Positions 43,921 to 61,932 of a stretch of DNA of 64,000 nt are shown one piece after another. A program made the translations under genes and the position numbers. Location of the stretch: contig JAFZXI010000115.1 of assembly GCA_017616855.1 (NCBI GenBank), forward strand, positions 1,412 to 65,411, read 5' to 3'. Numbering within the stretch: the stretch's first letter is position 1; every line of letters starts with the position of its first letter. Below the pieces are notes generated by a model. That model did no database searches. It worked only from the letters and a program-made list of their open reading frames with translations, and was not told the DNA's origin. Source of the stretch: Clostridia bacterium (GTDB lineage: Bacteria > Bacillota > Clostridia > Oscillospirales > RGIG8002).

Positions 43921-44079
43921 TTACGCAAGACTGTGCTTTACTCTGTCTTTTTCTTCAGCGCGTTTCGCGTTGTTGAAGCGGTCGGTGGTGCCGACGAGGT
44001 AACCGGTAATTCTGCGGATTCTCTCGAAGCCGACGCCTTCGCCTATTCCGGTATCGGTGGTGGTAATGCTCTTAGTCAT
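43921..44079 (-). CDS. stand-alone glycyl-radical module of class III RNR (52 aa, corresponds to the NrdD C-terminus)
   Basis: Own translation; below the ORF-track size cut-off. MTKSITTTDTGIGEGVGFERIRRITGYLVGTTDRFNNAKRAEEKDRVKHSLA. AGGAGGG lies 7 nt upstream of the ATG. The motif R-I-T-G-Y-L..G....FN.AK..E...RVKH matches the E. coli NrdD C-terminus RRVCGYLGSPDARPFNAGKQEEVKRRVKH (recalled). Confidence 0.75.
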   Translation of the reverse strand: MTKSITTTDTGIGEGVGFERIRRITGYLVGTTDRFNNAKRAEEKDRVKHSLA

Positions 44080-44118
44080 TTTTCTTTCCCTCCTGTGTGA
44101 AATGTGGTTTATGTTAGT

Positions 44119-46389
44119 TTATTTTACTCCGTAGAATCTGGGCATATTCGGGTACTTTTTGCGGAGCTCCGCGAGCTTCTCGTAACTGACCTCTTCGCCC
44201 TCGTGTCTGCCGCAGCGCGGGCAGGTGTCGCCGATGACGCCGGTGTAACCGCAGACGGGATCGCGGTCGACGGGGTGGTTGACGGAGCCGTAGCCGACGC
44301 CCTTCTCCTTCATGCAGCGGATGACGGACTCGAACGCGTCAAGGTTCTTGCAGGTGTCGCCGTCGAGCTCAACGTAGCTGATGTGTCCGGCGTTGGTCAG
44401 CGCGTGATACGGGGCCTCAAGGGATATCTTCTCGTATGCGCCGATGTTGTAGTAGACCGGAACGTGGAAGGAGTTGGTGTAATACTCTCTGTCGGTAATG
44501 CCGGGCAGCTTGCCGTACTTCTGGCGGTCGATGCGGACGAAACGGCCGCTGAGGCCCTCGGCGGGAGTGGCAAGCAGCGTGAAGTTCAGGCCCTCGGCCT
44601 TCGCCTTGTCATCGCACATCTTGCGCATGTGGCTGATGATCTCAAGACCGAGCTTCTGGCTCTCGGGGCTTTCGCCGTGGTGCTTGCCGGTCAGTGCGAC
44701 GAGCGTTTCGGCGAGTCCGATGAAGCCGACGCTGAGCGTGCCGTGCTTAAGCACTTCGGCGACGCTGTCGTCGTCGCTGAGCTTCTGCGAGTCGATCCAG
44801 ACGCCCTGCCCCATCAGGAAGGGGTAGTTACGCACCTTCTTGGTGCACTGGATGCCGAAGCGGTGGAGCAGCTGACGGAACACGAGCTCCATGCGCCTGT
44901 CGAGTATCGAATAGAACTTATCGATATTGCCTTCGGATTCGAGCGCGATCCTCGGCAGGTTGATCGAGGTAAAGCTGAGGTTGCCTCTGCCGCAGGTAAC
45001 CTGACGGCTCGGATCATAGACGTTCGCGATAACTCTCGTGCGGCAGCCCATATAAGCGACCTCGGTGTTGAAATCGCCGGGCTTGTAATACGCGAGGTTA
45101 AAGGGCGCGTCGATGAAGGAGAAGTTCGGGAAGAGGCGCTTGGCGGAGGTCTTCATCGCGAGCTTGAAGAGGTCGTAGTTGGGATCCTCTTTGTTATAGC
45201 TGATGCCTTCCTTGACCTTGAAGATCTGCACCGGGAAGATCGGGGTCTCGCCGTTGCCGAGACCGGCGTCGGTCGCGAGGAGCAGGTTTTTCATAACCAT
45301 GCGCGCTTCCGGCGAGGTGTCGGTGCCGTAGTTGATGGAACTGAACGGGACCTGCGCGCCGGCGCGGGAGTTCATCGTGTTGAGGTTGTGGATGAACGCT
45401 TCCATCGCCTGGTAGGTCGCGCGGTCGGTGTTCCTCATCGCGGTCTCGACGGACTTGCGGTGCGCCTTCTCGGCGTTCTCGCGCTTGAAGCCCTTCCCGA
45501 CGATGTATTCGACGACCTTCGCGCCGTATTCGTCGGTGTTGCCCATGCGGACGTCGTCGCCGAGCGCGGCTTTCAGCTCATCTACGAATTTGTCGGCGTC
45601 GGAGAGGTCGTCGCCGTCGGCATAGAAGTAGAATTGCTTAAGCGCCTTGAAATACTCTTTTTTGAAGGTCTTAGCGACGCCGGGCGCCATGCAGTAGTCG
45701 AAGTTCGGCACGCTCTGGCCGCCGTGCATCTCGTTCTGGTTCGCCTGGATCGCTATGCAGGCGAGCGCGGAGTAGCTGGAGATGCCGTTGGGCTCGCGCA
45801 GGTAGCCGTGGCCGGTGGAGAAACCGCCCTTGAAGAGCTCCAGCAGGTTGATCTGGCAGCAGGTCTCGGTCAGCATGTAGAAATCCTTGTCGTGAATGTG
45901 GATGTCGCCGTGGATGTGCGCCGCGGCGATGTCCTTCGGCAGGATATAGTTATCGACGAAGTATTTGCCGCCCTCGGAGCCGTATTTCAGCATCGTGCCC
46001 ATCGAGGTATCGGCGTCGATATTCGCGTTCTCGCGCTTGATATCGGCGTCCGCGGCGGAAGAGAAGGTCAGTTCCTTATATATATCCATCAGGTCGGACT
46101 CGGTCTGACGGATCTTCGCGTGCTCGGCGCGGTAAAGAATGTACGCCTTCGCGATCTTGGAGTAGCCGTGCTCGATAAGCTTCTCTTCGACGAGGTCCTG
46201 CACCTCCTCGACGGTGGGTATCCCCGTCGACGGGATTGCGAGGATTACCTTTTCGGTAAGGTTATCGAGCTCAACGTCGCTGAGCCCGTTGGGATCGGCG
46301 GCGTCCGCCGCCTTCTTTATCGCTTCTCTTATCTTCAGCGCGTCGAACGGGACGACGTCGCCGCTTCTCTTTCTGATTTTCCAGATCAT
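44119..46389 (-). CDS. nrdD: anaerobic ribonucleoside-triphosphate reductase NrdD, lacking the glycyl-radical C-terminus
   Basis: Likely start is the ATG at 46389 (ATP-cone MIWKIRKRSGDVVPFDALKIREAIKKA); the track ORF extends to 46524. Class III RNR core, C-terminal Zn-ribbon ...DPVCGYTGVIGDTCPRCG. Ends ...PRFYGVK* with no R..GY motif. Confidence 0.9.
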   Translation of the reverse strand: MIWKIRKRSGDVVPFDALKIREAIKKAADAADPNGLSDVELDNLTEKVILAIPSTGIPTVEEVQDLVEEKLIEHGYSKIAKAYILYRAEHAKIRQTESDLMDIYKELTFSSAADADIKRENANIDADTSMGTMLKYGSEGGKYFVDNYILPKDIAAAHIHGDIHIHDKDFYMLTETCCQINLLELFKGGFSTGHGYLREPNGISSYSALACIAIQANQNEMHGGQSVPNFDYCMAPGVAKTFKKEYFKALKQFYFYADGDDLSDADKFVDELKAALGDDVRMGNTDEYGAKVVEYIVGKGFKRENAEKAHRKSVETAMRNTDRATYQAMEAFIHNLNTMNSRAGAQVPFSSINYGTDTSPEARMVMKNLLLATDAGLGNGETPIFPVQIFKVKEGISYNKEDPNYDLFKLAMKTSAKRLFPNFSFIDAPFNLAYYKPGDFNTEVAYMGCRTRVIANVYDPSRQVTCGRGNLSFTSINLPRIALESEGNIDKFYSILDRRMELVFRQLLHRFGIQCTKKVRNYPFLMGQGVWIDSQKLSDDDSVAEVLKHGTLSVGFIGLAETLVALTGKHHGESPESQKLGLEIISHMRKMCDDKAKAEGLNFTLLATPAEGLSGRFVRIDRQKYGKLPGITDREYYTNSFHVPVYYNIGAYEKISLEAPYHALTNAGHISYVELDGDTCKNLDAFESVIRCMKEKGVGYGSVNHPVDRDPVCGYTGVIGDTCPRCGRHEGEEVSYEKLAELRKKYPNMPRFYGVK

Positions 46390-46754: not shown

Positions 46755-46831
46755 CCGCCCGTGGCACAGTTGGATAGCGCATCAGATTCCGATTCTGGAG
46801 GTCGGGGGTTCGAATCCCTTCGGGCGGACCA
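46755..46831 (+). tRNA. tRNA-Arg(CCG)
   Basis: Acceptor CCGCCCG/CGGGCGG, anticodon stem TCAGA/TCTGG with loop TTCCGAT, T-loop TTCGAAT, encoded CCA. Confidence 0.85.
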
Positions 46832-46912
46832 GGTGAGGTCAATGCGAACACGGTGCTGTTTTTCGGCGCCGAGGTGTTCGGGTTGATGGCTGTTTATGTA
46901 TGACAGCAAGAG

Positions 46913-46946
46913 AAAAAGGAGACGTGAAAGCGTCTCCTTTTTCTTT
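46913..46946 (+). terminator. rho-independent terminator after tRNA-Arg
   Basis: AAAAAGGAGACG-TGAAAG-CGTCTCCTTTTTCTTT. Confidence 0.75.
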
Positions 46947-47190
46947 AATGTCTTCACTGGGGCACGTCGGAGAGAGGTGCGCGAAGTCCTGTCGTATTGC
47001 ATTGTATTGCTTTTTCGCGGCGGGCTCTCCCCTGTTTCGATATTTCCCGCGAAAATCGCATATTCTTTTTTCATTTCGGGCCGGAAGGCCCTTTTTTCGT
47101 TTCCCGGAACAGATTTATTGCTTTTAGGGGAGAAAACGACGGCGCGCGGTGGTAAGATAAGCGCGTAAATGACAAAAGGAGCGAGGAACG

Positions 47191-47430
47191 ATGCCGAAGG
47201 TCCCCCACAAAATCGAAGAATGCGTCCATACGGACGATTTCTCGCGCTATAAGAGCGAGCACCGCGCGGAGCACGACAAGCTGAACGAGAAGGTCGAGAT
47301 GCAGAGCGAAAGAGTCGTCGGCGTCGAGGCGAAGCTGACGTCGCTGATCGCGGTGAACCGTCTCATACTTGGCGCGATCGTTACGGGGATAGTCTCGATC
47401 GTCGTTATCCTTCTGACGAGAGGTATATAA
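47191..47430 (+). CDS. XhlA-like phage membrane protein (lysis-associated)
   Basis: 79 aa: an N-terminal Cys/His region and coiled coil (EECVHTDDFSRYKSEHRAEHDKLNEKVEMQSERVVGVEAKL), then one C-terminal TM helix (LILGAIVTGIVSIVVILL). Architecture matches PBSX XhlA as recalled. Confidence 0.55.
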   Translation: MPKVPHKIEECVHTDDFSRYKSEHRAEHDKLNEKVEMQSERVVGVEAKLTSLIAVNRLILGAIVTGIVSIVVILLTRGI

Positions 47431-47432
47431 CA

Positions 47433-47591
47433 TGGATGAAGCAAGAGCGCGCGGAAAAGGCGTCGGGTTCGAAAGGATCCGCAGGATCACCGGCTATCTG
47501 GTCGGCGATCTGAAGCGCTTCAATAACGGGAAATACGCCGAACAGGCCGACAGAGTCAAGCATTCCGTAGGAGGCAGATATGGGATATGAT
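47433..47591 (+). CDS. phage-encoded stand-alone glycyl-radical module (52 aa, NrdD C-terminus-like)
   Basis: Own translation; below the ORF-track size cut-off. MDEARARGKGVGFERIRRITGYLVGDLKRFNNGKYAEQADRVKHSVGGRYGI. GAGAGG lies 8 nt upstream. 29 of 36 aligned residues are identical to the host minigene (43921..44079) by my count, with many synonymous differences. The 3' end overlaps the next ORF by 12 nt. Confidence 0.7.
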
Positions 47592-49055
47592 CCTTTGAGC
47601 GTCAAAGACGTTCACCAGAAATACGGCGGCAGCGGCTCCTTCGCCGACCGCGGTCAGACTTGGGTCGACCTCGGCCTCGGCGCCGCCGGCAGCTACATCG
47701 GAAGCGGAGATCAGAACAAAGCTCTCAGGTTGAAGATGGAGGAGGTCGGCGGGCTTACCCTTCCCGCAGCGACTCCCGCGGCAACGGAAACGGCGACTCC
47801 CGCCACGGCCGCCCCCTCTCCCGCTCCCGCGGCAACGGAAACGGCGACACCCGCCGCGGCCGCTCCGGTATATAACGATCCGGAGCTGGAGGCGGCGATC
47901 GCGAAGCTCCAGGGGACGGAATACAAACCTTCCGACGATGTGACGCAGCTCAAGCAGTCGGTCAACGACGCGATAAGCGAGTTCAAAAACTATCAATACG
48001 GCCTCGCTCAGGAGATCGAAGGGGCTCTGAAGAAGATCCTCGACCCGAAGACGTTCTCTTACGACCACGAAACGGACCCGAGCTACCACGCGCTCCGGGA
48101 TGAATACATCCGCAACGGGCGGATCGCCATGCTCGACACCGGCGCCGCGGCTGCCGCCGCGAACGGCGGGCGCGAGACGTCCTACGGACGCTCCGCCGCG
48201 CAGCAGGCGTATCAGGGATATATGAGCGAGCTCAATTCGAAGATACCCGAACTGGAAAACGCGGCGTATCAGCGCTACAGGGACGATCTGGACGACGCCT
48301 ATAAGCGCTATCAGCTCCTCGTTGAGGACAGGGAGCGCGAACGCGGCGAGAAAGTGGATGATCTGAAGCTCGCGCTCGAGCTTTACGAGAACGCCAGGGA
48401 CGACGAGCTGGAGGAATACGGTCTGACCCGCGACGAGCTGCTCGACACCATCAACGTCCTCGCGCAGCGCGAGAGCACCGGATACGAGCGCGGCAGAGAC
48501 GCCATAACCGACGAGCGATACGAGCGCGAATACGCCGACGAGAGAGCCGACACCGCCTATAACAAGCTCGCGACGCTGATCTCCTCCGCCGGCTACACTC
48601 CGACCGACGAAGATCTCGAAAAGGCGGGAATGAGCAAAGGGCAGGCCGACGCGCTGAAGGCGGCTTATGAGGTCGACGCGGCGAACGCGAAAAAGTCGTC
48701 TTCTTCCTCCGGATCCGGAACGAAGAAGAGCAGCAGCGGCTTCAAGAGTTCGACGGCGGACTCGGATCTCCGGAGTCTCAAGAAGAAGGGCGACACGAAG
48801 ACTGATGAGGGCTGCATGGCGATCGCTGAGGCGATGGCCGAATACTACCCCATCGATACCTACGGCGAGGACGTTATAGACTACTTCGCCAACACTTACG
48901 TCGGCGGTCACCCCATAGAATACTGGCTCAACCGCATCGACGAGCTGGAAGAGGAAAAGAATAACCCCGTCGCCACCGGCAAGACCTCCGGAATAAAGCC
49001 CGGACGTGCCGCGGGCGCCGGCGGGCTTACGGGCAACAAGGCAATGATAAATTAG
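47580..49055 (+). CDS. phage protein of unknown function (Pro/Thr/Ala linker plus long charged helical region)
   Basis: 491 aa with an internal duplicated linker (PAATPAATETATPATAAPSPAPAATETATPAAAAP). The E/R/D/Y-rich central region has no recognised catalytic motif. Confidence 0.7.
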   Translation: MGYDPLSVKDVHQKYGGSGSFADRGQTWVDLGLGAAGSYIGSGDQNKALRLKMEEVGGLTLPAATPAATETATPATAAPSPAPAATETATPAAAAPVYNDPELEAAIAKLQGTEYKPSDDVTQLKQSVNDAISEFKNYQYGLAQEIEGALKKILDPKTFSYDHETDPSYHALRDEYIRNGRIAMLDTGAAAAAANGGRETSYGRSAAQQAYQGYMSELNSKIPELENAAYQRYRDDLDDAYKRYQLLVEDRERERGEKVDDLKLALELYENARDDELEEYGLTRDELLDTINVLAQRESTGYERGRDAITDERYEREYADERADTAYNKLATLISSAGYTPTDEDLEKAGMSKGQADALKAAYEVDAANAKKSSSSSGSGTKKSSSGFKSSTADSDLRSLKKKGDTKTDEGCMAIAEAMAEYYPIDTYGEDVIDYFANTYVGGHPIEYWLNRIDELEEEKNNPVATGKTSGIKPGRAAGAGGLTGNKAMIN

Positions 49056-50645: not shown

Positions 50646-51047
50646 ATGCACGATCCCTCGATGAAACAGCAGGCGAAAGCGCTTGTTGTCAACAGAGGCC
50701 TATCCGTCGCCGCGGCTGCCCGCGAACTGGGCCTGCCGCGGCGTACTATTGCGGACTGGTCGAAGGCCGACGGCTGGCTTGAGCGGCGCGTCGAGCTTCG
50801 CCGCGACGTTTTTAATACGGAGACCACCGAGATCGAAGAGGGTATCGGCGACAACGCGGACGTCAGAGCTACCGCGAAGCGCGTGCTTAAAGGGATAAAC
50901 GTCTGGCTCGGCGCGTCGAAGGTCGTCTTGCCGAAGGAGGCCTCCGCGCTCGCCTCCGCCCTGGTCTCGCTCGCCGCGCTCGCGCCTTCGGACGCGGAAA
51001 AGACGCTCTCGGGCGTTATTTTCATTCCGGAGGTGAACGATGAGTAA
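50646..51047 (+). CDS. terminase small subunit (HTH type)
   Basis: 133 aa. The N-terminal HTH (QQAKALVVNRGLSVAAAARELGLPRRTIADWSKADGW) is typical of gpP-like / Terminase_5 small subunits. The 3' end overlaps the terL start by 8 nt. Confidence 0.7.
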   Translation: MHDPSMKQQAKALVVNRGLSVAAAARELGLPRRTIADWSKADGWLERRVELRRDVFNTETTEIEEGIGDNADVRATAKRVLKGINVWLGASKVVLPKEASALASALVSLAALAPSDAEKTLSGVIFIPEVNDE

Positions 51048-52446
51048 CGTCGTCTGGCGCCCGCAGCCCCGACAGGAGGAGTTTATGCGGCGTCCGGAAT
51101 ACGAGGCGCTCTACGGCGGAGCGGCCGGCGGAGGAAAAAGCGAAGCCCTCGTCATAGAGGCGCTGCGGCAGGTCAATATCCCCCACTATAAGGGACTGAT
51201 CCTGCGCAAAAGCTATCCACAGCTTTCCGAACTGATCGACAAAAGTATCCTATATTACCCGCGCGCGTATCCGGGAGCGAAATACAACGCCTCGACGCAC
51301 ACCTGGACCTTCCCTTCCGGCGCGAGGATCATTTTCGGATCGATGAACCGGAAGGAAGACAAGATCAAATACCAGGGCAAGAGCTTCGACTACATCGCCT
51401 TCGACGAGCTGACGCATTTCACCTGGGAGGAATATTCCTATATGTTCTCCCGAAACAGATCTTCCGGCCCCGGGGTTCGATCCTACATAAGAGCAACGGC
51501 GAACCCGGGCGGCGTCGGACACGGCTGGGTGAAGGACCGCTTCATCATCCCCGCTCCCCCGATGACGACGATCGCGGACACAGTGAAGTATTCCACCCCT
51601 TCCGGGGAGACGGAGGAGGCGTCGCGGACGAGGGTCTTTGTGCCGGCGACGGTCTATGACAATCAGATCCTCTTAAAGAACGATCCGGAATACGTCGCCA
51701 CCCTTGCCCTGCTTCCTCCCGCGGAGAGGCAGGCGCTGCTTTACGGCGACTGGGACTCCTTCTCGGGTCAGGTCTTCAGCGAATGGCGCAACGATCCCGC
51801 CGGGTATCTGACGCGGAAGTTCTCTCACGTCATTGAGCCCTTCGAGTTCCCCTCCTGGTGGAGAGTGGTGCGCGGGTTCGACTACGGTTATTCGAAGCCG
51901 TTTTCGGTCGGGTGGTATGCGGTATCCCCCGACGACGTTATCTACCGCGTCGCGGAGCTCTACGGCGGAGACGCGGACGTCGGCGTGAAATGGACTCCGG
52001 ACCGTATCGCCGAGGAGATAGCCGAGATAGAAAAAACTCACCCGCTGCTGCGCGACGTCAAGGTCGTGCTCGGGCTGGCGGATCCGGCGATTTTTTCCGC
52101 GACGGTTTACGGCGAAAGCATAGCCGAGCTGCTCGCGCGCAAGGGTGTTTATTTTTCCAAGGGAGACAATACGCGCCTCGCCGGTAAGATGCAGCTGCAC
52201 AACCGCCTCGCCTTCGACGAAGAGGGCCGGGCGAAGTTTTACGTTTTCAACACCTGCCGCAACTTTATACGCACGATCCCCTCTCTGGTCTATTCGACGG
52301 TCAACGTCGAGGACGTAGACACGACACAGGAGGATCACGCTTACGACGAATGCCGCTACGTGCTGATGGCGCACCCGATGACGACGGTGCCGAGGGTCAA
52401 GAGGCGCTGGAGGGTCCCGGAGCTCGATATCGACGAGGAATACTGA
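51040..52446 (+). CDS. terminase large subunit
   Basis: 468 aa with Walker A YGGAAGGGKSEAL, Walker B FDYIAFDELTHF, a coupling motif TANPGG, and a C-terminal nuclease region with acidic residues (DYGYS..., ...QEDHAYDECRY). Confidence 0.9.
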   Translation: MSNVVWRPQPRQEEFMRRPEYEALYGGAAGGGKSEALVIEALRQVNIPHYKGLILRKSYPQLSELIDKSILYYPRAYPGAKYNASTHTWTFPSGARIIFGSMNRKEDKIKYQGKSFDYIAFDELTHFTWEEYSYMFSRNRSSGPGVRSYIRATANPGGVGHGWVKDRFIIPAPPMTTIADTVKYSTPSGETEEASRTRVFVPATVYDNQILLKNDPEYVATLALLPPAERQALLYGDWDSFSGQVFSEWRNDPAGYLTRKFSHVIEPFEFPSWWRVVRGFDYGYSKPFSVGWYAVSPDDVIYRVAELYGGDADVGVKWTPDRIAEEIAEIEKTHPLLRDVKVVLGLADPAIFSATVYGESIAELLARKGVYFSKGDNTRLAGKMQLHNRLAFDEEGRAKFYVFNTCRNFIRTIPSLVYSTVNVEDVDTTQEDHAYDECRYVLMAHPMTTVPRVKRRWRVPELDIDEEY

Positions 52447-52724: not shown

Positions 52725-55700
52725 ATGGGCAAATACGCAGATCTTTACGCGAAGTTCGGCCGCGATATCAACAGCGACGCGGAAAAGAATAAGGAGACAA
52801 CGCAGGAGAAGCCCGCGGCGAAGACTTCGCGCGGGAAGTATTCCGATCTTTACGCGAAGTTCGGCCGCGACCTCGGCGGCCGTCGCACGAAGGCAGCGCA
52901 GGAGGAAGCGCAGCAGAAGGTCGAGGAGAAGAACGACGCGCTGCGCAACGCCCAGTCGAATTACCGCAGGCAGTATCTCATCAACGAGGCGACCAAGCGC
53001 GAGAACGAGAAGGAAGCGGAGGCGGAGCAGCGCCGGAGCAGGCGCTTCGCCAACGTCGCCGCCGCGAGGGCATATACCGATACCGCCAGCAGCGAGCGTT
53101 CTTACGAGGACCGCGTGAAGGCCGCGGAGGTCGAGAGGATCCAGGCGGAGAACAGGATCAGAGCCAGAAGCTCCGACGGACAGGAAGCGCAGCGCGACGA
53201 CGAGGCGCGTTACAACTATATCGCCCGCAGGATCGATACGCAGGAGAAAGCGAAAAAGGTCGAGGAGGCGCCCGGCGCCGGAAAGCTCACTGCCGAGCAG
53301 CTGAAGGAAGAGAGTGCGATCGGCGGCGTCACCAAAGGCGACCTGGCGTGGTATAAGGAAGAAAAGGCGCGGAGAGACGAGGCAGCGGCGCAGAAGAAGG
53401 CGGCGGAGGAGTATTTCGAGTCGCTCAAAACCTATTACAACAACCTGACGCTCGACCTCGACGCGGCGAAGGCGGAATACGACCGCGTCGCCGGGATAAA
53501 GCGCTTGCTTGATAACGCCGGCAGCGAGCTGGAGAAGATGAAGACGGAAAACCCGCAGCTCTGGAATGAGATCGACGGGATAGCGCAGTTTCTCTACGGC
53601 GGCCCGAAAGCAAAGCAATACGGCGAGGGCAAGATGGTGGACGACGGTCCCGACGCGGATTACTTCGGCGACAACGATGATATCGCGAGGCAGCACGCCT
53701 ACACCCGCTATATTCTCAGGCAATACGGCTACAAGGACTACGACGCGCTCGCGAAGGAGGTCGCCGAGAAGGGCAACACCTGGGCGACGGCGCGGGATAT
53801 TCAGGAGAGCTACAAGCTTGTGACGGACGCGAAGGCGGATCCTGAGTTCGAGGCGTGGGCGGCGAAAGGGGCCGCGGATAAGGATAACTCGGTAATGTGG
53901 GCGCGTGGTTTGACGGACGAAGAAGCCGAAAGCACCAAATCCACAATGGGCGTCGGCACCTCCGGACTTCGCGAAGACGTCATAAAGAGGCGTATGCTCA
54001 CGCAGGACGAGCTCGACATATACAATTATTACTACGGCAAGGGCGACAAGGACGCGGCTTACAAATACTATAATTCACTCGACGATCTGCTCGCCCAAAG
54101 GTCCGCCGTGTATAACGCGAAGGTGTTCGGAGACAGCTTCTTCGGCAAGGCAAATATGGCAATATACACCGGGTTCGAGCAGTTTGCAAACGGCGTATAT
54201 CGCAAGATCGGGCCGAAGCAGGAATACTACTACCCGACCGTCAGCCAGTATACATCCGCTATACTCACGCAGGATATGGGCGGGGTCGAGAAGTTCTGGT
54301 ATGATCTCGGCGTCAACGTCTCGAATATGGCGCCTTCCATTATCGCCGGTAAGCTCGCGAGCTATATCAATCCCGTCTTCGGCGAGCTCGTCGGCGCGGC
54401 GACGATGGGGCTTTCCGCTTCCGGCAACGCATACGCCGAAGCGATCAACTCCGGCATGACGCCCAACCAGGCGAGCGCGTATTCCAATCTGATAGGTCTT
54501 TCCGAGACTACGCTGCAGGCGGCTATCGGCGGTATTCCCTACGTCGGCGGCGCAGTGACCGGCGGAGTTTTCACGAAGGCCGGAACGAAGGTGCTGCGCT
54601 TCGCCGGCGGGCTCAACTCCGGCATGGCGAAGGTCGCGACGAAGGCCCTCGGCTACGGGCTGAAATACGTCGGCAAATCCTTCGGAGAGTTCGTCGAAGA
54701 GGGTTTGCAGGAGGTGCTGGAGCCGTATTTCGCGGCGTTCGTCACGGGCGAGGCGCCGGACGACGTCGACTGGGACGCGGTATTCTACAGCGCCGGTATG
54801 GGCTTCATCACTTCCCTCCTGCTGAATGCCGGCGACAGCGCGGTCAACGTGAAGAACGCGCGCAGCAAGGCGAAGGATGTTATAAATCAAGGCGGCGCCG
54901 AGCTCGCCGTCAGGCTCGGGCTGCAGTTTGACGAGAAGAGCGACGTCTACCGCATCGCGAAGGAGATACAGCGCGACGGATACGACACCGGCAACATCGC
55001 CGAGCTGCTGATGGCGCTCGAGACGGAAACGCAGAACGATCCCGACTTCGCGCAGCGGTTCACGGACCGCGACTTCGGCGAGCTTAATATCAAGCCGAAG
55101 AACGAGACGAAGACCATAGATAAGAACGCGAAGAAGATCGGCAAATACGTCGAAAAGCAGGACGCGACGGAAGGCGCCGCTTACGAGGCGGCTACGCAGA
55201 CGCCGATAAGCGAGAGCGTCGCCGGGCAGGACGTCCGGGGCGAAGAGGTCTCTCCCGTCAGAACGGCGGAGGAGTTCGTTTCGCGCTATAACGGAGAGGT
55301 TGCGGAAAACGCAACAACTGAAGCGCGTCCGGACACGAACGCGGTCGATGAGGGCGCCGCGCGCACCTCCGGGACGAACGTGAATACGGCGGCGGAGACA
55401 AACGCGCCGACGGTCGCGAACGTTCCCGCGGAGACGGTCCCTTCCGATAACGAAAACGTTATCACGGTCAAGCGGGCGAAGGTTTCGGACGCTTCGAAGG
55501 CGGTCAGCCGCATAACGAAGAACGGCAAAGCGATCGAGGGCGGCGGACGGTATTACGTTTACGATACCGCCGGCACTACCGCGATACGCTACGATGACGC
55601 GCCGGCGAACGTGAGCTTCACGAGCGAAGACGGGCTCGCCGGAAGGATAGACCGGGTGCTCAACACCGAGGGAGACGATACGGGCGTCGTTTTCGATACC

Positions 55701-58700
55701 GGGAAGATCTCCGATCTGAAGACGGCGATAAACACGGTCAAGCAGATAAAGAGCGCTTACGGCGACAAGGGCGCGACGGTCGTTTATAATTTCGGCGACG
55801 GCGTGGTCGTGGACGCCGCGAAGGTTCTCGACGTCGCGGAGGCGCTTCCGGGCGCGACGGTGCAGCGCGTGCCGGTCGGCAACGGGTATTACGGGCTGAA
55901 GTTCGTCGTGGAAAACGGCGTCGGGCTCGTTATGCCGATAAATGCGAAGGACGTCAGCGCCGCGGAGGACTCTGTCTTCCTGATCCGCGGAAGGAACACG
56001 CCGGCTTCGGCATCGGTCGTGCTGGGGAACAATTCCTGGTCTCCCGCGGAGGGCGAGGCGGCTATACCCGCAAAGAGCAGCGATCGAGTATTCAACGACG
56101 ACCTGACGTTCAATCTTGCGGATGATACCGTAAATGATACGATAAATGATACTATAAACGAAAACGGCGCCGAGACCGACGCCGACGTTATAGATCTGAC
56201 CGAGGACAGCGAGCTGACCGAAGAGCTGAGGGGCAAGAGCGCCAAAGAAATACGAAGAAGTCTGTTTGAGTACATAAAGCGCATCTTCGGCAATAAAGAA
56301 ATCACGCTAAGCGACGGCAGAAAAGCCATCGTGGACAAAGGTGACGCAAGGAAGCTTTCGGACAGGAGCTCGCCCGAATGGGTTGCGAAGATCGCGAAGG
56401 TGCAGGAGCTTATAAACAAGGCGCAGCTTACGGACGAGGACCCGAACCCAGAGCATAAAAAGTTCACACATTTCTGGTACTACAAAGCTTCGGTAAAAAC
56501 GGAACGAGGCGTGATCAGTGTCTATCTCAATATAGGAAAAGCTCGCACCGACACAAACAACCACCTTTACGATATTACAGAAAGTATAAGAGACACCGCC
56601 CGGCCTTACGCCGGCGGGAGCGTCAACCCGACTTACTCCCTGAAGAACGGTATCTCTACAAGTGATATTGTAACCGAAAACGGCGGAAAAGTCAATACCG
56701 AAAGCGAAAAAACTTCAAAATCGCAGCAGGAAGACGCGTCAGATCGCGGAAAAGTGCAAAAATCTGCCGAAAAATCGTCTGAAAAAGTGCAAAATATACC
56801 CGAACGGGGCGAAAACGGGAGCGAAACGACGGGTCGAGGGGCGGCTGCGAACGAAAATACGGAAGGCAGCGTGAAAAAGCGCGGCGGGAGGAACGTTTTC
56901 CGCAGCGAAAGCGGGAAATATTCCGAAATAGACGGCATAAACGACGACGGCGACGTCGTGCTGGAGGGCGGAGAGACGCTCGACGTCGATTCTCTCGATC
57001 CGGAAGCGCGCAGCGCGGTCGATACCGTCCTCGCGGACTTCTATTCCGGACGGATAAGCGAAGCGCAGGCTATGGATATGCTCAGGAACGGCACCCTCAC
57101 CTACACAAAGGGAGAGAACGCCTGGATCGCGGAGGAGCTGAACGACGGGAATACCGCTAAACTGATGAGCCCGCAGCAGATAGAGGCGATGGCGGAAAGG
57201 CTTTTCGGCATCTATATCAATTACGGGCGCGTCCAGGGGCGCAGAACGATGGGCTTCATGCGCCAGGGAGAACGCGGGCTCCGCACACGCACAGTCGGCA
57301 TGCTTCCGACCGTCTCGCACGAGCTGACGCACATCCTGGACCTGACGGACGGCCGCGAATTGAGCAAGCTAACGGGAATACAAGAGGTGATAAAAGCGGC
57401 GCCGCAGGCCTGGCTTGCGGGTTATCCGAAAAGCGCCCGCGCATCTGAGGCCGTCGCGTGGTTCGGCGAGCAGTATTTCCGATCGAGAAAAACCGCGCAG
57501 CAGATCTCGCCGGAGTTTTTCCGCAACTTCGAGGCCTCCTTCAGTCCGACCGAACTGAAGAAGCTGCACGAGCTCGGCGACGCTGTCAATAAGTTTATGG
57601 TGCGCGAGACGGATGCGGAGGGCAACGATATAACAATGCTCAAGCAGTCCCGCGCGCAGCTCGCGACGCAGGCGGTGAAGCCGAAGGATATGCGGGCGCT
57701 CGGCGACAAGGCTCGCGAATTGGCGCTGCGCTTCGAAACGAAGTATTTTAACTCCAACGCACCCTTCGAGAAGAGCTTCGGCGACAAGGCGGCGGTGCTG
57801 TATAACGCGGACATCATTTCCGGCGCCGCCAGGGCGACGTATATGATAAACGGCACCGACGCGCTGATCGGGAAAAAGCACTCCGGAGGATTCGATACGT
57901 CGGACGGGCGCCACATCGAAGATCTGAGCACGATCCTCTCCCCTCTTGAAAAGTCCGGAAAGGAAGCTTACGACGATTTCAACACCTATCTCGTGCTCCG
58001 GAGAGGCGGGTATAAAGTCATTGAAGGCAAACGCGTCTTTGCTTCCGATATGGCGAATAATCCTTCAGAGATCTCACGCAATATCGATCTGCTCGAAAAA
58101 GCGCATCCGGAGTTCCGGGAGATCGCCGACAAGGCGATAGAGTTCCACCGCGAGCTCGTCAAGAAGACCTGCGTCGATACCGGACTGATGAGCGAAGAGA
58201 CTTTCGATCAGATGACGAAGGAAGATCCGTTCTATGTTCCCTTCAGGCGCGACGTCGACGGCACGCACGGCTCCGGAGTAAATACGACGCTGCAGTCCGC
58301 GAAACAGTTCAAAAGGATGCGCGGCAGCGGCCGTGATATATACAATCCGGTCGAGTCGCTCTTCCAGGACGCCTATGAAACGGTCGTTTCTTCTCTCCGG
58401 GCGCAATACGGCGACTATATCCTCGACAGTGTGGACGCGGATCCCGCCGGCATGGAATGGCTCGCGACGAAGGTCAACGCAAAGGTCAACCTTGACGTCA
58501 CGGATCTTTCCGCGCAGCGCGACTCCTTCCGCGGGCAGCTCGTCGCTTCCGGACTCGATCAGAAGGCAGTTGACGCCATAATGAGCATATACGACGGCAC
58601 CGTCGGAGATGAGGTCAAGAGCTTCCGTGTCCCGTATTACCAGGGCGAAGACTTTTTCCTTCGCCGTCGGTGGCACAAGGACGCGAACGGAAAGGAAAGC

Positions 58701-60875
58701 TCCACCCTCACCTGCTACCAGTTCAACAGCGCCTTCGGAAAAGCCGCGCTGCAGAACACGATAGACAACTCCGTGAACTTTAACAGTAAAGCGGTCAACG
58801 CGCTGATGAAGCTATCGCACATCCGGAAGATCTTCCTGACCGGCTCCTCTCCCCTCTTCACCGTGCGAAACCTCATCCGCGACGCGCAGGACGCCTACGC
58901 TTATTCAAGAATAAAGAACCCTCTGGAGTTCACGAAAAGGTATATCGGCGCGCTGAAATCGGTCCTGACGGCCGATCAGGCGTATATGGACTATAAGAAG
59001 GCCGGCGGCGGCAACTCGACGCGTATTTCCTCAGACGTCAGGACGATCGCGGACGTCGTGCCCGCGGTCTATAAAGCGCATACGAAAAAGAGCGTGCAGC
59101 TGATGCAAGGTATGGTTAGGTTCGCCCCGAGCATGATCGAGCGCATAAACGAAGCCGTCGAGCAGGTGCCGCGCATGCTGGAGTTCAAACATTCGCTCGA
59201 TCACGGCGGCAGTATGAACGAGGCACTTTACAGGGCCGCGAACATCACGGTAAACTTCGGACAGCACGGAGCGGCTAAAAGCTTCATATCTCTCATGGGA
59301 GGCATTTTCCCCTTCTTCAACGCCGGTATGCAGGGACGTTACAGAATGTATCAGGCGCTGAAGACCGACACGGTGAGTTTTTTGGCGAAGAAAACGCTGA
59401 CCGCGCTCGTGCGCAACGGCATCCTCTTCGGGCTTGTTAAGGCATTCGGCGCGGAGGATGAATACAAAAAACTCTCAAACTACATCAAGAACAACTACTA
59501 TGTCATCCCGATCGGCAAGGGCAGCTTCATCCGGCTGCCGAAGGATCGCGAAGGCGGCATACTCGACTCGCTGATGGAAAACGCCGTTTCCTCGCTGATG
59601 TATGGAACGGACGGCGAGCAGTGGTATGACTACGCGACCTATCTGATAGACCAGGTCGGCGGCCCGGGAACGATCGAATCGTTTCTCGGATACCTCGTCG
59701 AGACGCTGCACGACGGTGGCCAGATAACAGACGTCGCCGCTGGCATAATGAGCGATACCGTCGCTTCGCCGATTTTCGACCTTATGAGAAACAAGGATTA
59801 TCGCGGCGTGAAGATTGAGACGACGAGCGATCAGAAGCTTCCTCAGTCAGAAAGATACGACGAAAACACTTCTGCGCTCGCCAAGTTCCTCGGAAGCCTC
59901 GGCGTCCTCTCCCCGAAGCAGGTGCAGCACCTCGTCGAATCTCTCGGCTTCATACCTGCCGCGGTGATCTCGCTGCCGGAAAACTTCGCCGAAGGCGGAT
60001 TATTCGGTCCCGCAAAAAGCTTCGCCAACTCCTTCGCGACCGCTTTTACGTCGTCCTCCGCCTACTCAAACGACGCGATAAACGATTTTTACGACGGGTT
60101 CGAGAAGCTCGAAATGAAGAAAAACGCAGACGGCGGCGGCGAGATCCGCGCGGAATACGCCCGCGCCTCCGGCGTTAAAACGATAATGAGCGAGCTTTAT
60201 AAAATGAGGCGCGAAACGGAGAGCGAGGAGGAGCGCGAGGCGATCACGAGGATCATACGCGATAGCGCCTACGACTACCTCCACGCAGATACAATGGACG
60301 ACCACGTCGAAAAAGAGCTGATCGCGCTCTACGATCGAATCGGCGATAAGGACTACGCCGGGATATTCTATTCGGCGCCGAAGGCGAGCTGGTCGACCGG
60401 CGGCGTTACATACTCCCTCGACCTTGCGACGTATCTCGAATATGCAGAAGAGTATCGAGGGGCCGTCAGAAGCGCTTATTCCATCGTTTTCGCGAATGAA
60501 TACTCAAACGATACCGAGCTTGCCGAAGATCTCGAAGACGCGAAGGAGCTTACGGTAAAAGAGCTGAAGCGTAAGTATATGCTGAGAGCGAAGCGTTCGA
60601 GCGACGCGGTCACTACGGAACGCATCAGATCGGAGCTCGAATACGGCGATTCCGGCGCGGACGTCTCTATCACGCTCAAAGAATACGTCACTCAGGAACG
60701 CGGCGCCGGCAGAAAGGACGAAGGCATCCGCCAGTCGCTCTCGAATATATTCCGCGCCGATTACAAGGAATATGCTGCGGACGGCGACAAAAAGATGACC
60801 GACTACATCGAGCAGCTGCTTATAGGCCTCGGGATCGGGTTTACATCCGAAAAGATCAGAAAATGGGCGGACTGA
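52725..60875 (+). CDS. giant (2716 aa) phage protein, polyvalent / virion-associated-like, with HExxH zincin motif
   Basis: GGAGG lies 7 nt upstream. Duplicated N-terminal motif GKY(A/S)DLYAKFGRD (nt 52728 and 52833). About 300 aa of charged coiled coil. A Gly/Ala-rich hydrophobic region similar to tape-measure or ejection proteins (nt ~54324-54850). TVSHELTHILD...EAVAWFGEQYF is HExxH plus a downstream Glu, at nt 57318-57332. About 1100 aa of C-terminal region without recognised motifs. Occupies the terL-to-scaffold slot. Confidence 0.85.
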   Translation: MGKYADLYAKFGRDINSDAEKNKETTQEKPAAKTSRGKYSDLYAKFGRDLGGRRTKAAQEEAQQKVEEKNDALRNAQSNYRRQYLINEATKRENEKEAEAEQRRSRRFANVAAARAYTDTASSERSYEDRVKAAEVERIQAENRIRARSSDGQEAQRDDEARYNYIARRIDTQEKAKKVEEAPGAGKLTAEQLKEESAIGGVTKGDLAWYKEEKARRDEAAAQKKAAEEYFESLKTYYNNLTLDLDAAKAEYDRVAGIKRLLDNAGSELEKMKTENPQLWNEIDGIAQFLYGGPKAKQYGEGKMVDDGPDADYFGDNDDIARQHAYTRYILRQYGYKDYDALAKEVAEKGNTWATARDIQESYKLVTDAKADPEFEAWAAKGAADKDNSVMWARGLTDEEAESTKSTMGVGTSGLREDVIKRRMLTQDELDIYNYYYGKGDKDAAYKYYNSLDDLLAQRSAVYNAKVFGDSFFGKANMAIYTGFEQFANGVYRKIGPKQEYYYPTVSQYTSAILTQDMGGVEKFWYDLGVNVSNMAPSIIAGKLASYINPVFGELVGAATMGLSASGNAYAEAINSGMTPNQASAYSNLIGLSETTLQAAIGGIPYVGGAVTGGVFTKAGTKVLRFAGGLNSGMAKVATKALGYGLKYVGKSFGEFVEEGLQEVLEPYFAAFVTGEAPDDVDWDAVFYSAGMGFITSLLLNAGDSAVNVKNARSKAKDVINQGGAELAVRLGLQFDEKSDVYRIAKEIQRDGYDTGNIAELLMALETETQNDPDFAQRFTDRDFGELNIKPKNETKTIDKNAKKIGKYVEKQDATEGAAYEAATQTPISESVAGQDVRGEEVSPVRTAEEFVSRYNGEVAENATTEARPDTNAVDEGAARTSGTNVNTAAETNAPTVANVPAETVPSDNENVITVKRAKVSDASKAVSRITKNGKAIEGGGRYYVYDTAGTTAIRYDDAPANVSFTSEDGLAGRIDRVLNTEGDDTGVVFDTGKISDLKTAINTVKQIKSAYGDKGATVVYNFGDGVVVDAAKVLDVAEALPGATVQRVPVGNGYYGLKFVVENGVGLVMPINAKDVSAAEDSVFLIRGRNTPASASVVLGNNSWSPAEGEAAIPAKSSDRVFNDDLTFNLADDTVNDTINDTINENGAETDADVIDLTEDSELTEELRGKSAKEIRRSLFEYIKRIFGNKEITLSDGRKAIVDKGDARKLSDRSSPEWVAKIAKVQELINKAQLTDEDPNPEHKKFTHFWYYKASVKTERGVISVYLNIGKARTDTNNHLYDITESIRDTARPYAGGSVNPTYSLKNGISTSDIVTENGGKVNTESEKTSKSQQEDASDRGKVQKSAEKSSEKVQNIPERGENGSETTGRGAAANENTEGSVKKRGGRNVFRSESGKYSEIDGINDDGDVVLEGGETLDVDSLDPEARSAVDTVLADFYSGRISEAQAMDMLRNGTLTYTKGENAWIAEELNDGNTAKLMSPQQIEAMAERLFGIYINYGRVQGRRTMGFMRQGERGLRTRTVGMLPTVSHELTHILDLTDGRELSKLTGIQEVIKAAPQAWLAGYPKSARASEAVAWFGEQYFRSRKTAQQISPEFFRNFEASFSPTELKKLHELGDAVNKFMVRETDAEGNDITMLKQSRAQLATQAVKPKDMRALGDKARELALRFETKYFNSNAPFEKSFGDKAAVLYNADIISGAARATYMINGTDALIGKKHSGGFDTSDGRHIEDLSTILSPLEKSGKEAYDDFNTYLVLRRGGYKVIEGKRVFASDMANNPSEISRNIDLLEKAHPEFREIADKAIEFHRELVKKTCVDTGLMSEETFDQMTKEDPFYVPFRRDVDGTHGSGVNTTLQSAKQFKRMRGSGRDIYNPVESLFQDAYETVVSSLRAQYGDYILDSVDADPAGMEWLATKVNAKVNLDVTDLSAQRDSFRGQLVASGLDQKAVDAIMSIYDGTVGDEVKSFRVPYYQGEDFFLRRRWHKDANGKESSTLTCYQFNSAFGKAALQNTIDNSVNFNSKAVNALMKLSHIRKIFLTGSSPLFTVRNLIRDAQDAYAYSRIKNPLEFTKRYIGALKSVLTADQAYMDYKKAGGGNSTRISSDVRTIADVVPAVYKAHTKKSVQLMQGMVRFAPSMIERINEAVEQVPRMLEFKHSLDHGGSMNEALYRAANITVNFGQHGAAKSFISLMGGIFPFFNAGMQGRYRMYQALKTDTVSFLAKKTLTALVRNGILFGLVKAFGAEDEYKKLSNYIKNNYYVIPIGKGSFIRLPKDREGGILDSLMENAVSSLMYGTDGEQWYDYATYLIDQVGGPGTIESFLGYLVETLHDGGQITDVAAGIMSDTVASPIFDLMRNKDYRGVKIETTSDQKLPQSERYDENTSALAKFLGSLGVLSPKQVQHLVESLGFIPAAVISLPENFAEGGLFGPAKSFANSFATAFTSSSAYSNDAINDFYDGFEKLEMKKNADGGGEIRAEYARASGVKTIMSELYKMRRETESEEEREAITRIIRDSAYDYLHADTMDDHVEKELIALYDRIGDKDYAGIFYSAPKASWSTGGVTYSLDLATYLEYAEEYRGAVRSAYSIVFANEYSNDTELAEDLEDAKELTVKELKRKYMLRAKRSSDAVTTERIRSELEYGDSGADVSITLKEYVTQERGAGRKDEGIRQSLSNIFRADYKEYAADGDKKMTDYIEQLLIGLGIGFTSEKIRKWAD

Positions 60876-61018: not shown

Positions 61019-61903
61019 ATGCTCGATTTTGATTATTTCGACCTTCAGCGCTTCTCGGACGGTGAGGTCGAAGGCGACGCCGGCCAAACGGGCGAGGCCG
61101 CCGCAGAACCTGCAGGCGAGCCGACAGCACAGACCGTTCCGGATCTCGATGCGGAGTTCGACGAGCTCGTCAAGGGAAAGTATAAGGACGCTTATAAGTC
61201 CCGCGCCGAAGCTTTCGTCGGAAAGAGACTCCGCAAAGCGAACGCCGAGCTGGAGCAGCTGCGCACGGAAACGGCGCAGTATAAAAAGTATGCTCAGCTC
61301 GTAAGAGAACGCTATCCGGACGCCGCGGACGACGCCGCGGCTTTTGAGGCATTCGACAACGACGCCCGTCTGCTCGCGGACGAGGCGGACAGAAACGGTT
61401 ATCCCGTCGATCTATGGAAGGAAAAACGCTCCATAGAGCGCGAAAAACGCGAGATCGCGGAGGAAAAGCGCGCAAAAAGCGACGCCGACGCGCGTTCCCG
61501 CAAAATGGACGACTGGATCGAACAGAGCGAGCGCCTCAAACAGAAATACCCGGGATTTGACCTCAGAGCGGAGCTTTCGGACCCCGAAACGCAGGCCGAC
61601 TTCTTCGATCTAATCGAGAAAAAGGGCCTGACGATCGAGCAGGCATACCGCCAGGTGCGCTTTGACAAGCTCATAGAGGACGCGAGGATAAACGCCGCCC
61701 TCGAAAGTGAGAAGCAGACCGTCGAGAGGATAAAATCCGGGACTGAAAGACCGAGAGAGAATGGCTCCGCGGCGACGCCCGCCGGAAAGGCGATCGTTGA
61801 CGTCACACACGCGGACAAGGAAACGCTGGCGAAGATAGACCGCGCCCTCCGCAGACACGGAAGGTTCGATCCGATGAACCCGCCGGCGGATTTCGACTAT
61901 TGA
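61019..61903 (+). CDS. phage scaffolding protein
   Basis: 294 aa, highly charged and helical, immediately upstream of the capsid gene. N-terminus MLDFDYFDLQRFSDGE is of the ..LQ.FA type seen on Firmicute phage scaffold proteins. Confidence 0.75.
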   Translation: MLDFDYFDLQRFSDGEVEGDAGQTGEAAAEPAGEPTAQTVPDLDAEFDELVKGKYKDAYKSRAEAFVGKRLRKANAELEQLRTETAQYKKYAQLVRERYPDAADDAAAFEAFDNDARLLADEADRNGYPVDLWKEKRSIEREKREIAEEKRAKSDADARSRKMDDWIEQSERLKQKYPGFDLRAELSDPETQADFFDLIEKKGLTIEQAYRQVRFDKLIEDARINAALESEKQTVERIKSGTERPRENGSAATPAGKAIVDVTHADKETLAKIDRALRRHGRFDPMNPPADFDY

Positions 61904-61932
61904 TATCAAATCTTCAGAAAGGAAAAAACACC

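Follow-up and report, generated by a model that had tools for sequence, protein, structure and literature searches.

The anaerobic ribonucleotide reductase (RNR) is needed by many strict anaerobes for making DNA. In the window analysed here, which is the whole stretch of 64,000 nucleotides from contig JAFZXI010000115.1 of a Clostridia bacterium (assembly GCA_017616855.1), two mini-genes of 52 codons each encode a peptide resembling the glycyl-radical loop of NrdD, the class III RNR. One of them follows the host nrdD gene, and the other, on the opposite strand, belongs to a prophage integrated at a neighbouring tRNA-Arg(CCG) gene, where it stands between a gene for a 79-aa membrane-anchored protein and a 491-aa open reading frame (ORF) of the phage (Table 1). 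A sequence-only reading of this DNA had recognised the phage ORF and its exact peptide, but had placed it at 47433-47591, which is shifted by +1 from the true position (47432..47590). The plausible ribosome-binding site that it mentioned is present as GAGG, 8 nt before the ATG, and the overlap with the next ORF is present too, although it measures 11 nt and not 12 since the 491-aa ORF starts at 47580. The ORF was said to be unannotated, whereas NCBI holds it as a 'hypothetical protein' (MBO4584827.1). Elsewhere in public records the small protein is named 'hypothetical protein', 'nrdD protein' or 'ribonucleoside-triphosphate reductase', and neither NCBIfam, Pfam nor PHROGs has a model of its own for it.

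Profile searches identified both peptides as the end of NrdD. With Pfam NRDD (PF13597; gathering cut-off, 26.2 bits), the phage peptide scored 28.5 bits and the host peptide 33.0 bits, both solely at profile positions 533-562 of 562, in agreement with the stand-alone NrdD radical module proposed earlier, and the NCBIfam NrdD equivalogs matched the phage peptide at their last ~32 positions alone (E 1e-10 to 3e-7). Between the two families named beforehand for both peptides, the match was thus to NRDD and not to the Gly_radical family (PF01228) typical of pyruvate formate-lyase (PFL); neither this model nor those of GrcA, in Pfam and NCBIfam, gave a match to either peptide at E<=1. An alignment places residues 13-48 of the phage peptide on chain residues 707-741 of the Prevotella copri NrdD, and its G21, Y22 and R29 on Gly711, Tyr712 and Arg719 of that enzyme (residues 715, 716 and 723 of chain 8p23_A, whose numbering has a 4-residue tag offset). 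According to the paper on the P. copri NrdD structure, the radical is placed at Gly711, and Tyr712 and Arg719 link to the NxN flap that covers the substrate. By these alignments the phage ORF is a true homologue of the glycyl-radical loop of class III RNR. It is a fragment-type homologue or subunit and no NrdD enzyme, as its 52 aa include no ten-stranded barrel, no catalytic cysteines and no Zn ribbon.

The two peptides of the window are identical at 30 of 40 positions (BLASTP, E=2e-21), and the earlier count of 29/36 in the core was correct. The many synonymous codon differences reported between the two genes were also recovered, amounting to 15.3 of 24 synonymous sites in the 35-codon core on which synonymous divergence (dS) and its ratio to non-synonymous divergence (dN/dS) were computed. 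Because dS is ~1.4 and dN/dS 0.12 with respect to the host copy, the phage copy is neither a recent duplicate nor an assembly artefact. Comparison with other phages tells the same: the window peptide and that of the free-phage contig L172 are separated by 13 synonymous changes (dS ~0.48) and 0 amino-acid changes, two residues differ in the free-phage contig L001, and the 35-aa core differs at 2-3 residues from those of L003 and L008, with synonymous sites saturated. An identical peptide in a free phage across such a distance, and saturation with respect to other phage lineages, are what a maintained paralogue should present, as the sequence-only reading had assumed, and the phage copy as an old paralogue under purifying selection is supported by these substitution patterns.

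The host mini-gene was found where it had been placed, and the host NrdD indeed has no radical module of its own: its 756 aa (NCBIfam PRK07111, 1054 bits) end at NRDD profile position 531, and its last 121 residues stop aligning to the P. copri chain at residue 708, where the zinc ribbon ends. With the large subunit reaching 708 and the peptide starting at 707, the two tile the P. copri NrdD C-terminus end to end. The enzyme is thus divided past its Zn ribbon and ahead of the buried radical loop: here and in many other anaerobes, a subunit of ~750 aa has the ATP-cone, the catalytic barrel and the Zn site, and a peptide of ~50 aa, translated separately, has the loop with the radical glycine and the C-terminal tail. 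The host mini-gene, called 'ribonucleoside-triphosphate reductase' in NCBI, is present with its exact sequence on 24+ contigs. An intron, an intein or stop read-through was considered as the cause of the split and rejected. Stop codon and mini-gene are in frame, yet a 39-nt spacer with a strong ribosome-binding site separates them; moreover, Rfam is blank in this spacer and all 120 nearest homologues end in the same conserved tail.

These 120 homologues nearest to the host NrdD (identity, 72-96%), several of which come from named metagenome-assembled genomes (MAGs) of Angelakisella, Merdivicinus or Catenibacillus, are without exception devoid of the RxxGY loop and share an extra tail after the Zn ribbon (CPRCGRxEGE..S.EKL.ELRKKYPNMP), which fused NrdDs do not have and which may serve as a docking element for the free peptide. 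Searching with the peptide returned 6871 matches, the top 120 being all proteins of 47-79 aa. In a genome set made of the best 80 loci, with one genome per GTDB species, 55 were split (a separate mini ORF downstream of nrdD and on its strand), 16 fused and 9 orphan, in Oscillospiraceae, Acutalibacteraceae, uncultured Bacilli, Erysipelotrichaceae, Mogibacterium, Fibrobacter, Desulfovibrio and others. The next gene has the radical S-adenosylmethionine (SAM) motif CxxxCxxC at 34 of 48 split loci, and the four genes tested all score above the NrdG cut-off (TIGR02491); with an NrdG-like gene directly after the split locus, these are therefore nrdD-mini-nrdG operons. To judge from this recurrence, the split of the host NrdD is a conserved architecture and no defect, and such arrangements would only make sense if the peptide works in trans.

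Variants of the split locus were also seen. The order is reversed, with the mini-gene directly upstream of a loop-less nrdD, in L026 (7947-10362) and L084 (7971-10644). A viral contig (L057 4165-8120; IMG/VR UViG 3300028832_000707) encodes its own loop-less NrdD of 641 aa, which covers NRDD 1-531/562 without an ATP-cone; the mini-gene, separate from it, is found 1.8 kb downstream, where it follows DUF6378 and Lar-like genes beside a GH108 endolysin and a holin. Gene calling divided the host nrdD of L169 (6533-9150) and L176 (3344-5961), from one metagenome, into a 231-aa fragment and a 572-aa antisense ORF, probably owing to a frameshift or assembly error inside nrdD.

The host mini-gene lies directly beside a loop-less nrdD, as the small subunit of a two-component enzyme should, and the phage ORF does not; the latter is an orphan paralogue of the split-NrdD small subunit. 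Orphans of this kind are common in viral DNA. At least 532 IMG/VR loci encode relatives of the mini-gene, and among the best 80 of them, hereafter the viral set, 73 are orphans, being neither fused nor accompanied by an nrdD within ~700 nt of the motif. A nrdG gene occurs in 3 of these 80 loci, each time with a full-length nrdD, and in no orphan locus. The 73 orphan copies keep F-8, R-6, N+10, K+13, E+16, R+20, K+22 and H+23 at 98-100%, as do host and fused NrdD, and are found next to widely differing genes, including those for GH108 and GH25 endolysins, holins, terminases, integrases and replication. Among the GenBank and INPHARED records checked, which left out the unannotated fecal contigs H2-H8, no stand-alone copy was seen: named phages match through annotated full-length nrdD genes, and the best match, an unannotated fecal contig, is a fused full-length NrdD.

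The phage copy of the window belongs to a clade with the signature LVGDLxRFNxGK[YF]AEQ ('KYAEQ' clade), which was found in no host-adjacent mini-gene of the genome set and in a phage context in 9/9 members inspected. Conservation in related phages and prophages, on which the earlier proposal depended, is thus seen in the free-phage contigs, in this clade and among the IMG/VR loci. The usual order in the clade is Peptidase_M23, a small membrane protein, the mini-gene, attP and an integrase, the start of the mini-gene often overlapping the preceding stop, and the mini-gene is att-proximal cargo, i.e., the last or second gene beside attP, in every clade phage examined. Its recurrent position right after, and overlapping, a small transmembrane or coiled-coil gene that itself follows a Peptidase_M23 lysin could evoke a role in the lysis cassette together with the adjacent XhlA-like membrane protein, for instance as an oxygen- or redox-sensitive timer unrelated to NrdD. 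Such a role is very improbable. The small membrane proteins come from at least three unrelated families, hence their pairing with the mini-gene is one of position without a shared module; many viral copies have other neighbours such as terminase, replication genes or integrase; and the sequence is constrained exactly as that of a functional NrdD loop. Resident in phage genomes and under selection, the mini-gene can be counted among the auxiliary metabolic genes or morons, which are host-derived and not needed for the structure of the virion. The locus is one case of a large class comprising the split nrdD-mini-nrdG operons of many anaerobes and the viral loci with relatives of the mini-gene.

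Some orphans are longer. One form has a Cys-rich N-terminus (CDEC..KCK..ECL), possibly a zinc-ribbon mimic, and a second form has an N-terminal domain of ~50 aa ending in ..DGEYVDL.Y.F..VPFERIRRITGY. Longer orphans were observed at the viral loci L036, L044, L048, L051, L053, L059, L070 and L076, as well as at L041, L075, L088, L114, L118, L139 (Ruminococcus flavefaciens FD-1), L155 and L167. Orphans of the second form, several of which are from Ruminococcus with fused NrdDs in this set, could be GrcA-like repair proteins. Moreover, an unusual FERTRRITGY variant is common to Desulfovibrio prophage or viral mini-peptides (L092 from Desulfovibrio falkowii, L011, L017 and L023) and to the Desulfovibrio host mini-gene L147, which suggests independent, host-matched acquisitions. 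Finally, a reverse transcriptase (RVT_1) is encoded by several of the tyrosine-integrase phages that carry the mini-gene (L003 3774-4811, L187 2536-3573 and L188 1827-3511), one of them with a bAvd-like gene, and the arrangement, close to the tail-fibre and lysis region, resembles a diversity-generating retroelement.

Table 1. Features of the split nrdD locus and of the adjoining prophage (positions are those of the window; strand relative to the sequence as presented)
Feature	Position	Strand	Basis or remark
Host mini-gene, 52-aa NrdD glycyl-radical subunit	43921..44079	-	Pfam NRDD 533-562/562, 33 bits
Spacer between nrdD TAA stop and host mini-gene, 39 nt	44080..44118	-	With AGGAGGG as ribosome-binding site; free of introns and inteins
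Host NrdD large subunit, 756 aa (ATP-cone, barrel and Zn ribbon, no glycyl loop)	44119..46389	-	Pfam NRDD 1-531/562 and ATP-cone
Host tRNA-Arg(CCG), phage attachment site	46755..46831	+	ARAGORN; Rfam tRNA, 56.9 bits
attL core GGCGGACCA, common to tRNA 3' end and phage attP	46823..46831	.	Window aligned with free-phage contigs L172 and L001
Prophage left end, last 24 codons of large-serine-recombinase gene	46832..46903	+	Translates to ...VNANTVLFFGAEVFGLMAVYV and stop
Terminator-like hairpin and T-run, 3' of integrase tail	46917..46944	+	From sequence; conserved in L172
Second terminator-like hairpin, upstream of 79-aa gene	47078..47097	+	From sequence
Membrane-anchored coiled-coil protein, 79 aa, weakly XhlA/hemolysin-like	47191..47430	+	Pfam, PHROG
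GAGG ribosome-binding site of phage mini-gene	47420..47423	+	8 nt before ATG, read from sequence
Phage mini-gene, 52-aa stand-alone NrdD glycyl-radical loop	47432..47590	+	ATG to TGA; radical Gly is G21 in RRITGY
Phage ORF of 491 aa, function unknown	47580..49055	+	11-nt overlap with mini-gene; GGAGG at 47570-47574
Terminase large subunit	51040..52446	+	PHROG 979, E=1e-62
ORF of 2716 aa with LPD38 'large polyvalent protein' domain	52725..60875	+	Directly after terminase
Major head protein	61900..63186	+	PHROG 1357, E=1e-77

The region right of the tRNA-Arg(CCG) gene is a prophage, as indicated by a terminase large subunit, a major head protein and a BppU-like tail protein. The contigs L001, L002 and L172 represent the same phage in its unintegrated gene order, which is CI-like repressor, large serine recombinase, 79-aa gene, mini-gene, 491-aa gene, BppU, terS, terL and the giant LPD38 protein (2600-2980 aa, with LPD38, LPD3 and ART-PolyVal domains, for its counterparts in related phages). 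The lysogen junction of the window recurs in several metagenomes and in the MAG GCA_017556225.1. In the free phage, the attP core GGCGGACCA is part of the 3' end of the large-serine-recombinase gene itself, with 24 codons remaining up to the stop (core and recombinase tail: window 46823-46903; L172 7714-7794; L001 3069-3152). Integration into tRNA-Arg(CCG) cuts these last 24 codons off the gene body, and the recombinase must therefore have a different C-terminus in the prophage state. Neither a phage nrdD nor a phage nrdG was seen in the window prophage.

The stop codon of the 79-aa gene (47428-47430) ends 1 nt ahead of the mini-gene start. Its product is 93.7% identical to the counterpart in L001, and the XhlA likeness attributed to it earlier holds weakly, with E=0.0019 to Pfam XhlA, under the cut-off of that family, and E=0.0023 to PHROG 1193 hemolysin. 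Between both terminators 3' of attL, a non-coding stretch of ~54 nt (window 46943-46993) is 81% identical, in inverted orientation, to L003 6181-6234, which is the sequence just 3' of the mini-gene in an unrelated tyrosine-integrase phage.

The prophage lies 430 bp from the start of nrdD, and a second case is provided by a sister host, the Clostridia MAG GCA_017438525.1 (L181 1-7300 and L182), where the same tRNA-Arg(CCG) beside nrdD and the host mini-gene harbours a prophage whose backbone is different. That prophage encodes an LPD3 giant protein, Phage_fiber_2, Peptidase_M23, an XhlA-like protein of 102 aa and a 49-aa mini-gene, and has the same att core, GGCGGACCA, at its L181 junction and a homologous att arm. 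Two such prophages at one site, each with a mini-gene close to attP as is always the case, might lead one to consider the phage copy as a functionless and unselected passenger, i.e., either a fragment of host DNA acquired by imprecise excision at nrdD or a stretch of att-site homology. Strong purifying selection makes a passenger highly improbable, the dN/dS value largely refuting it, and no lineage has lost the start, the stop or the ribosome-binding site of the ORF, which is intact throughout. In addition, the att core is the 3' end of tRNA-Arg and not part of the mini-gene, the tRNA 3' fragments in the attP regions of related tyrosine-integrase phages are different ones, genomic orphan copies are located away from nrdD, and the host mini-gene, oppositely oriented, adjoins the distal end of nrdD.

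Two more specific explanations of the closeness to nrdD were rejected. An attP overlapping the mini-gene, with integration into the host mini-gene, is contradicted by the core, which is the tRNA-Arg 3' end and lies in the 3' end of the integrase gene, and by the host mini-gene, which is intact. A recent capture of the mini-gene from the adjacent nrdD by imprecise excision is countered by the dS with respect to the host copy and by the place and strand of the host mini-gene given above, as well as by the other tRNA 3' fragments in the attP regions of same-clade tyrosine-integrase phages, by the orphan genome copies distant from nrdD and by the fact that tRNA-Arg(CCG) beside nrdD is not general. 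Capture from an nrdD locus is unsupported as a recent event and conceivable as an ancient one. The closeness of prophage and nrdD is best explained by the choice of the tRNA attachment site, since integration chose the neighbouring tRNA-Arg gene without any link to nrdD.

Regarding its function, the phage ORF probably encodes, on balance, a phage counterpart of the small subunit that bears the radical in a two-piece class III RNR; it would act in trans, be activated by the host NrdG and sustain the host NrdD. The host activase NrdG would install the glycyl radical on the free phage peptide, which would then dock into the barrel of the host NrdD, either replacing the host peptide or adding to it. 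In glycyl-radical proteins, oxygen cleaves the chain at the glycine, as described in the cited literature, and with a split enzyme the peptide would therefore be a consumable part. A phage gene of 159 nt might in this manner keep host deoxynucleoside triphosphate (dNTP) synthesis going during phage replication or after exposure of the lysogen to O2, and would, as an auxiliary metabolic gene of minimal size, be for RNR the analogue of what GrcA/YfiD and T4 Y06I are for PFL.

Several points weigh against this proposal. No nrdG was found in the 64-kb window with E. coli or clostridial queries, and the presence of a host NrdG is thus assumed. AlphaFold2 applied to a concatenation of NrdD(756) and the phage peptide with 23 homologues gave a low-confidence model (mean predicted local distance difference test score 63, peptide <50). 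The co-occurrence of phage copies with split-NrdD hosts rests on 2 cases, namely both prophages with visible host flanks. The mini-gene is translationally coupled to a small membrane protein and is found beside lysis, structural or att-proximal genes, apart from replication genes, so that its timing may be late. Furthermore, the phage clade presents fixed differences from host peptides after the loop (T->D at +5, R->Y/F at +14 and E->Q at +17), which could mean altered affinity or competition instead of simple substitution.

These fixed substitutions next to the loop, which distinguish the clade from both host and fused NrdD, and the location with late or lysis genes rather than replication genes would also fit a decoy or takeover, in which the peptide of the phage would compete with that of the host for access to the NrdD barrel or to NrdG and throttle or re-tune host dNTP synthesis. 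Its purposes might be, e.g., to arrest host replication, to exclude superinfecting phages with a loop-less NrdD, or to make NrdD phage-dependent, and phages with their own loop-less NrdD do exist as possible targets. We nevertheless consider a decoy unlikely. The radical glycine and all residues invariant in functional NrdD are kept in every copy seen, whereas a pure blocker needs no glycine, PADLOC defence models gave no match to the mini-gene and its four neighbours, and phages in general benefit from more, not less, dNTP supply.

The att-proximal cargo slot occupied in every clade phage examined is, on the other hand, the classic position of conversion genes, and spare-part logic is established for GrcA. 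It may thus be asked whether the gene serves lysogenic conversion only, expression from the resident prophage raising the O2 tolerance or recovery of the lysogen by means of a larger pool of replaceable radical peptide, with no lytic role. This is about as unlikely as the decoy: the mini-gene is not in a terminator-bounded cassette, its overlap or abutment with phage genes suggests co-transcription with them, and no sigma-70-like promoter was seen upstream of it when looked for.

If the phage peptide does sustain the host NrdD, its closest counterparts are GrcA/YfiD of E. coli and Y06I of phage T4, an analogy already drawn in the sequence-only reading and judged apt; all parts of that interpretation which could be tested were borne out. 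Likewise small and stand-alone, these proteins consist of the glycyl-radical part only, act in trans and are activated by the radical-SAM activase of the enzyme, and one of them, T4 Y06I, is phage-encoded. However, the enzyme there is PFL and here class III RNR, the peptides described here match Pfam NRDD and not Gly_radical, so the resemblance is functional only, and the length is ~127 aa there compared to ~50 aa here. Since the host enzyme is constitutively split, the peptide would moreover be an obligatory subunit, unlike the mere repair part of the GrcA type. Full-length phage nrdD and nrdG genes (T4-like phages, phiCD211 and others) similarly provide a phage-borne class III RNR function, presumably for anoxic dNTP supply, whereas the mini-gene retains only the last ~35 conserved residues, with no barrel, Zn ribbon, ATP-cone or nrdG, and its activity must therefore depend on the NrdD and NrdG of the host.

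RNR catalytic subunits made from two separately translated genes, whose products combine to an active enzyme, are known from Aeromonas phage Aeh1 (nrdA-a/nrdA-b), Pseudomonas aeruginosa (NrdJa/NrdJb) and Thermus phage phiYS40 (nrdJ). These splits, however, concern class I or II enzymes and are tied to homing endonucleases or located elsewhere in the protein; in none of them is the radical element set apart as a peptide of ~50 aa, or one piece present as an orphan on a temperate phage. The nrdD genes interrupted by introns, inteins or homing endonuclease genes in T-even and other phages also have their coding sequence in more than one piece, but here nothing intervenes in the host except the 39-nt spacer with its ribosome-binding site, and the phage copy is isolated.

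According to a 2026 review, no class of glycyl-radical enzymes except the formate lyases has known spare parts, those of others being yet to be determined, and a 2021 paper agrees that spare parts outside PFL are undetermined. The earlier statement that no description of a phage-borne spare radical module for an RNR was known is in line with what specialists of these enzymes still write. No description of a split NrdD or of an NrdD spare part was found in the open-access literature, a mention in closed-access articles being possible. The mini-gene family looks like a widespread and undescribed two-piece enzyme with a phage 'spare part', and its peptide is provisionally classified as an autonomous glycyl-radical cofactor for class III RNR, which would be an obligatory subunit in the host and an orphan auxiliary gene in phages.

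In a broader view, the chances seem evenly balanced that class III RNR is, in many gut and rumen anaerobes, a true two-subunit enzyme with a free, exchangeable and consumable radical subunit of ~50 aa, and that temperate phages repeatedly took up only that subunit. The split of NrdD explains the 'truncated' NrdD of many MAG annotations, and virome counts of phage 'nrdD' auxiliary genes need to be re-read, as many of the matches will be 50-aa orphans. The family provides a concrete and testable candidate for a spare part of the anaerobic RNR. If the peptide works in trans, then activation of NrdD, its damage by oxygen and its repair would become accessible with a peptide of synthetic size. If the proposed role is true, this 'spare part' system would be the first one outside PFL among glycyl-radical enzymes, and a peptide of 6 kDa could be the substrate of a radical-SAM activase and then a dissociable radical cofactor. 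The mini-gene would also be the smallest metabolic gene by which a phage controls host dNTP synthesis and recovery from oxygen, and temperate gut phages would tune the nucleotide supply of their hosts with 159 bases of DNA.

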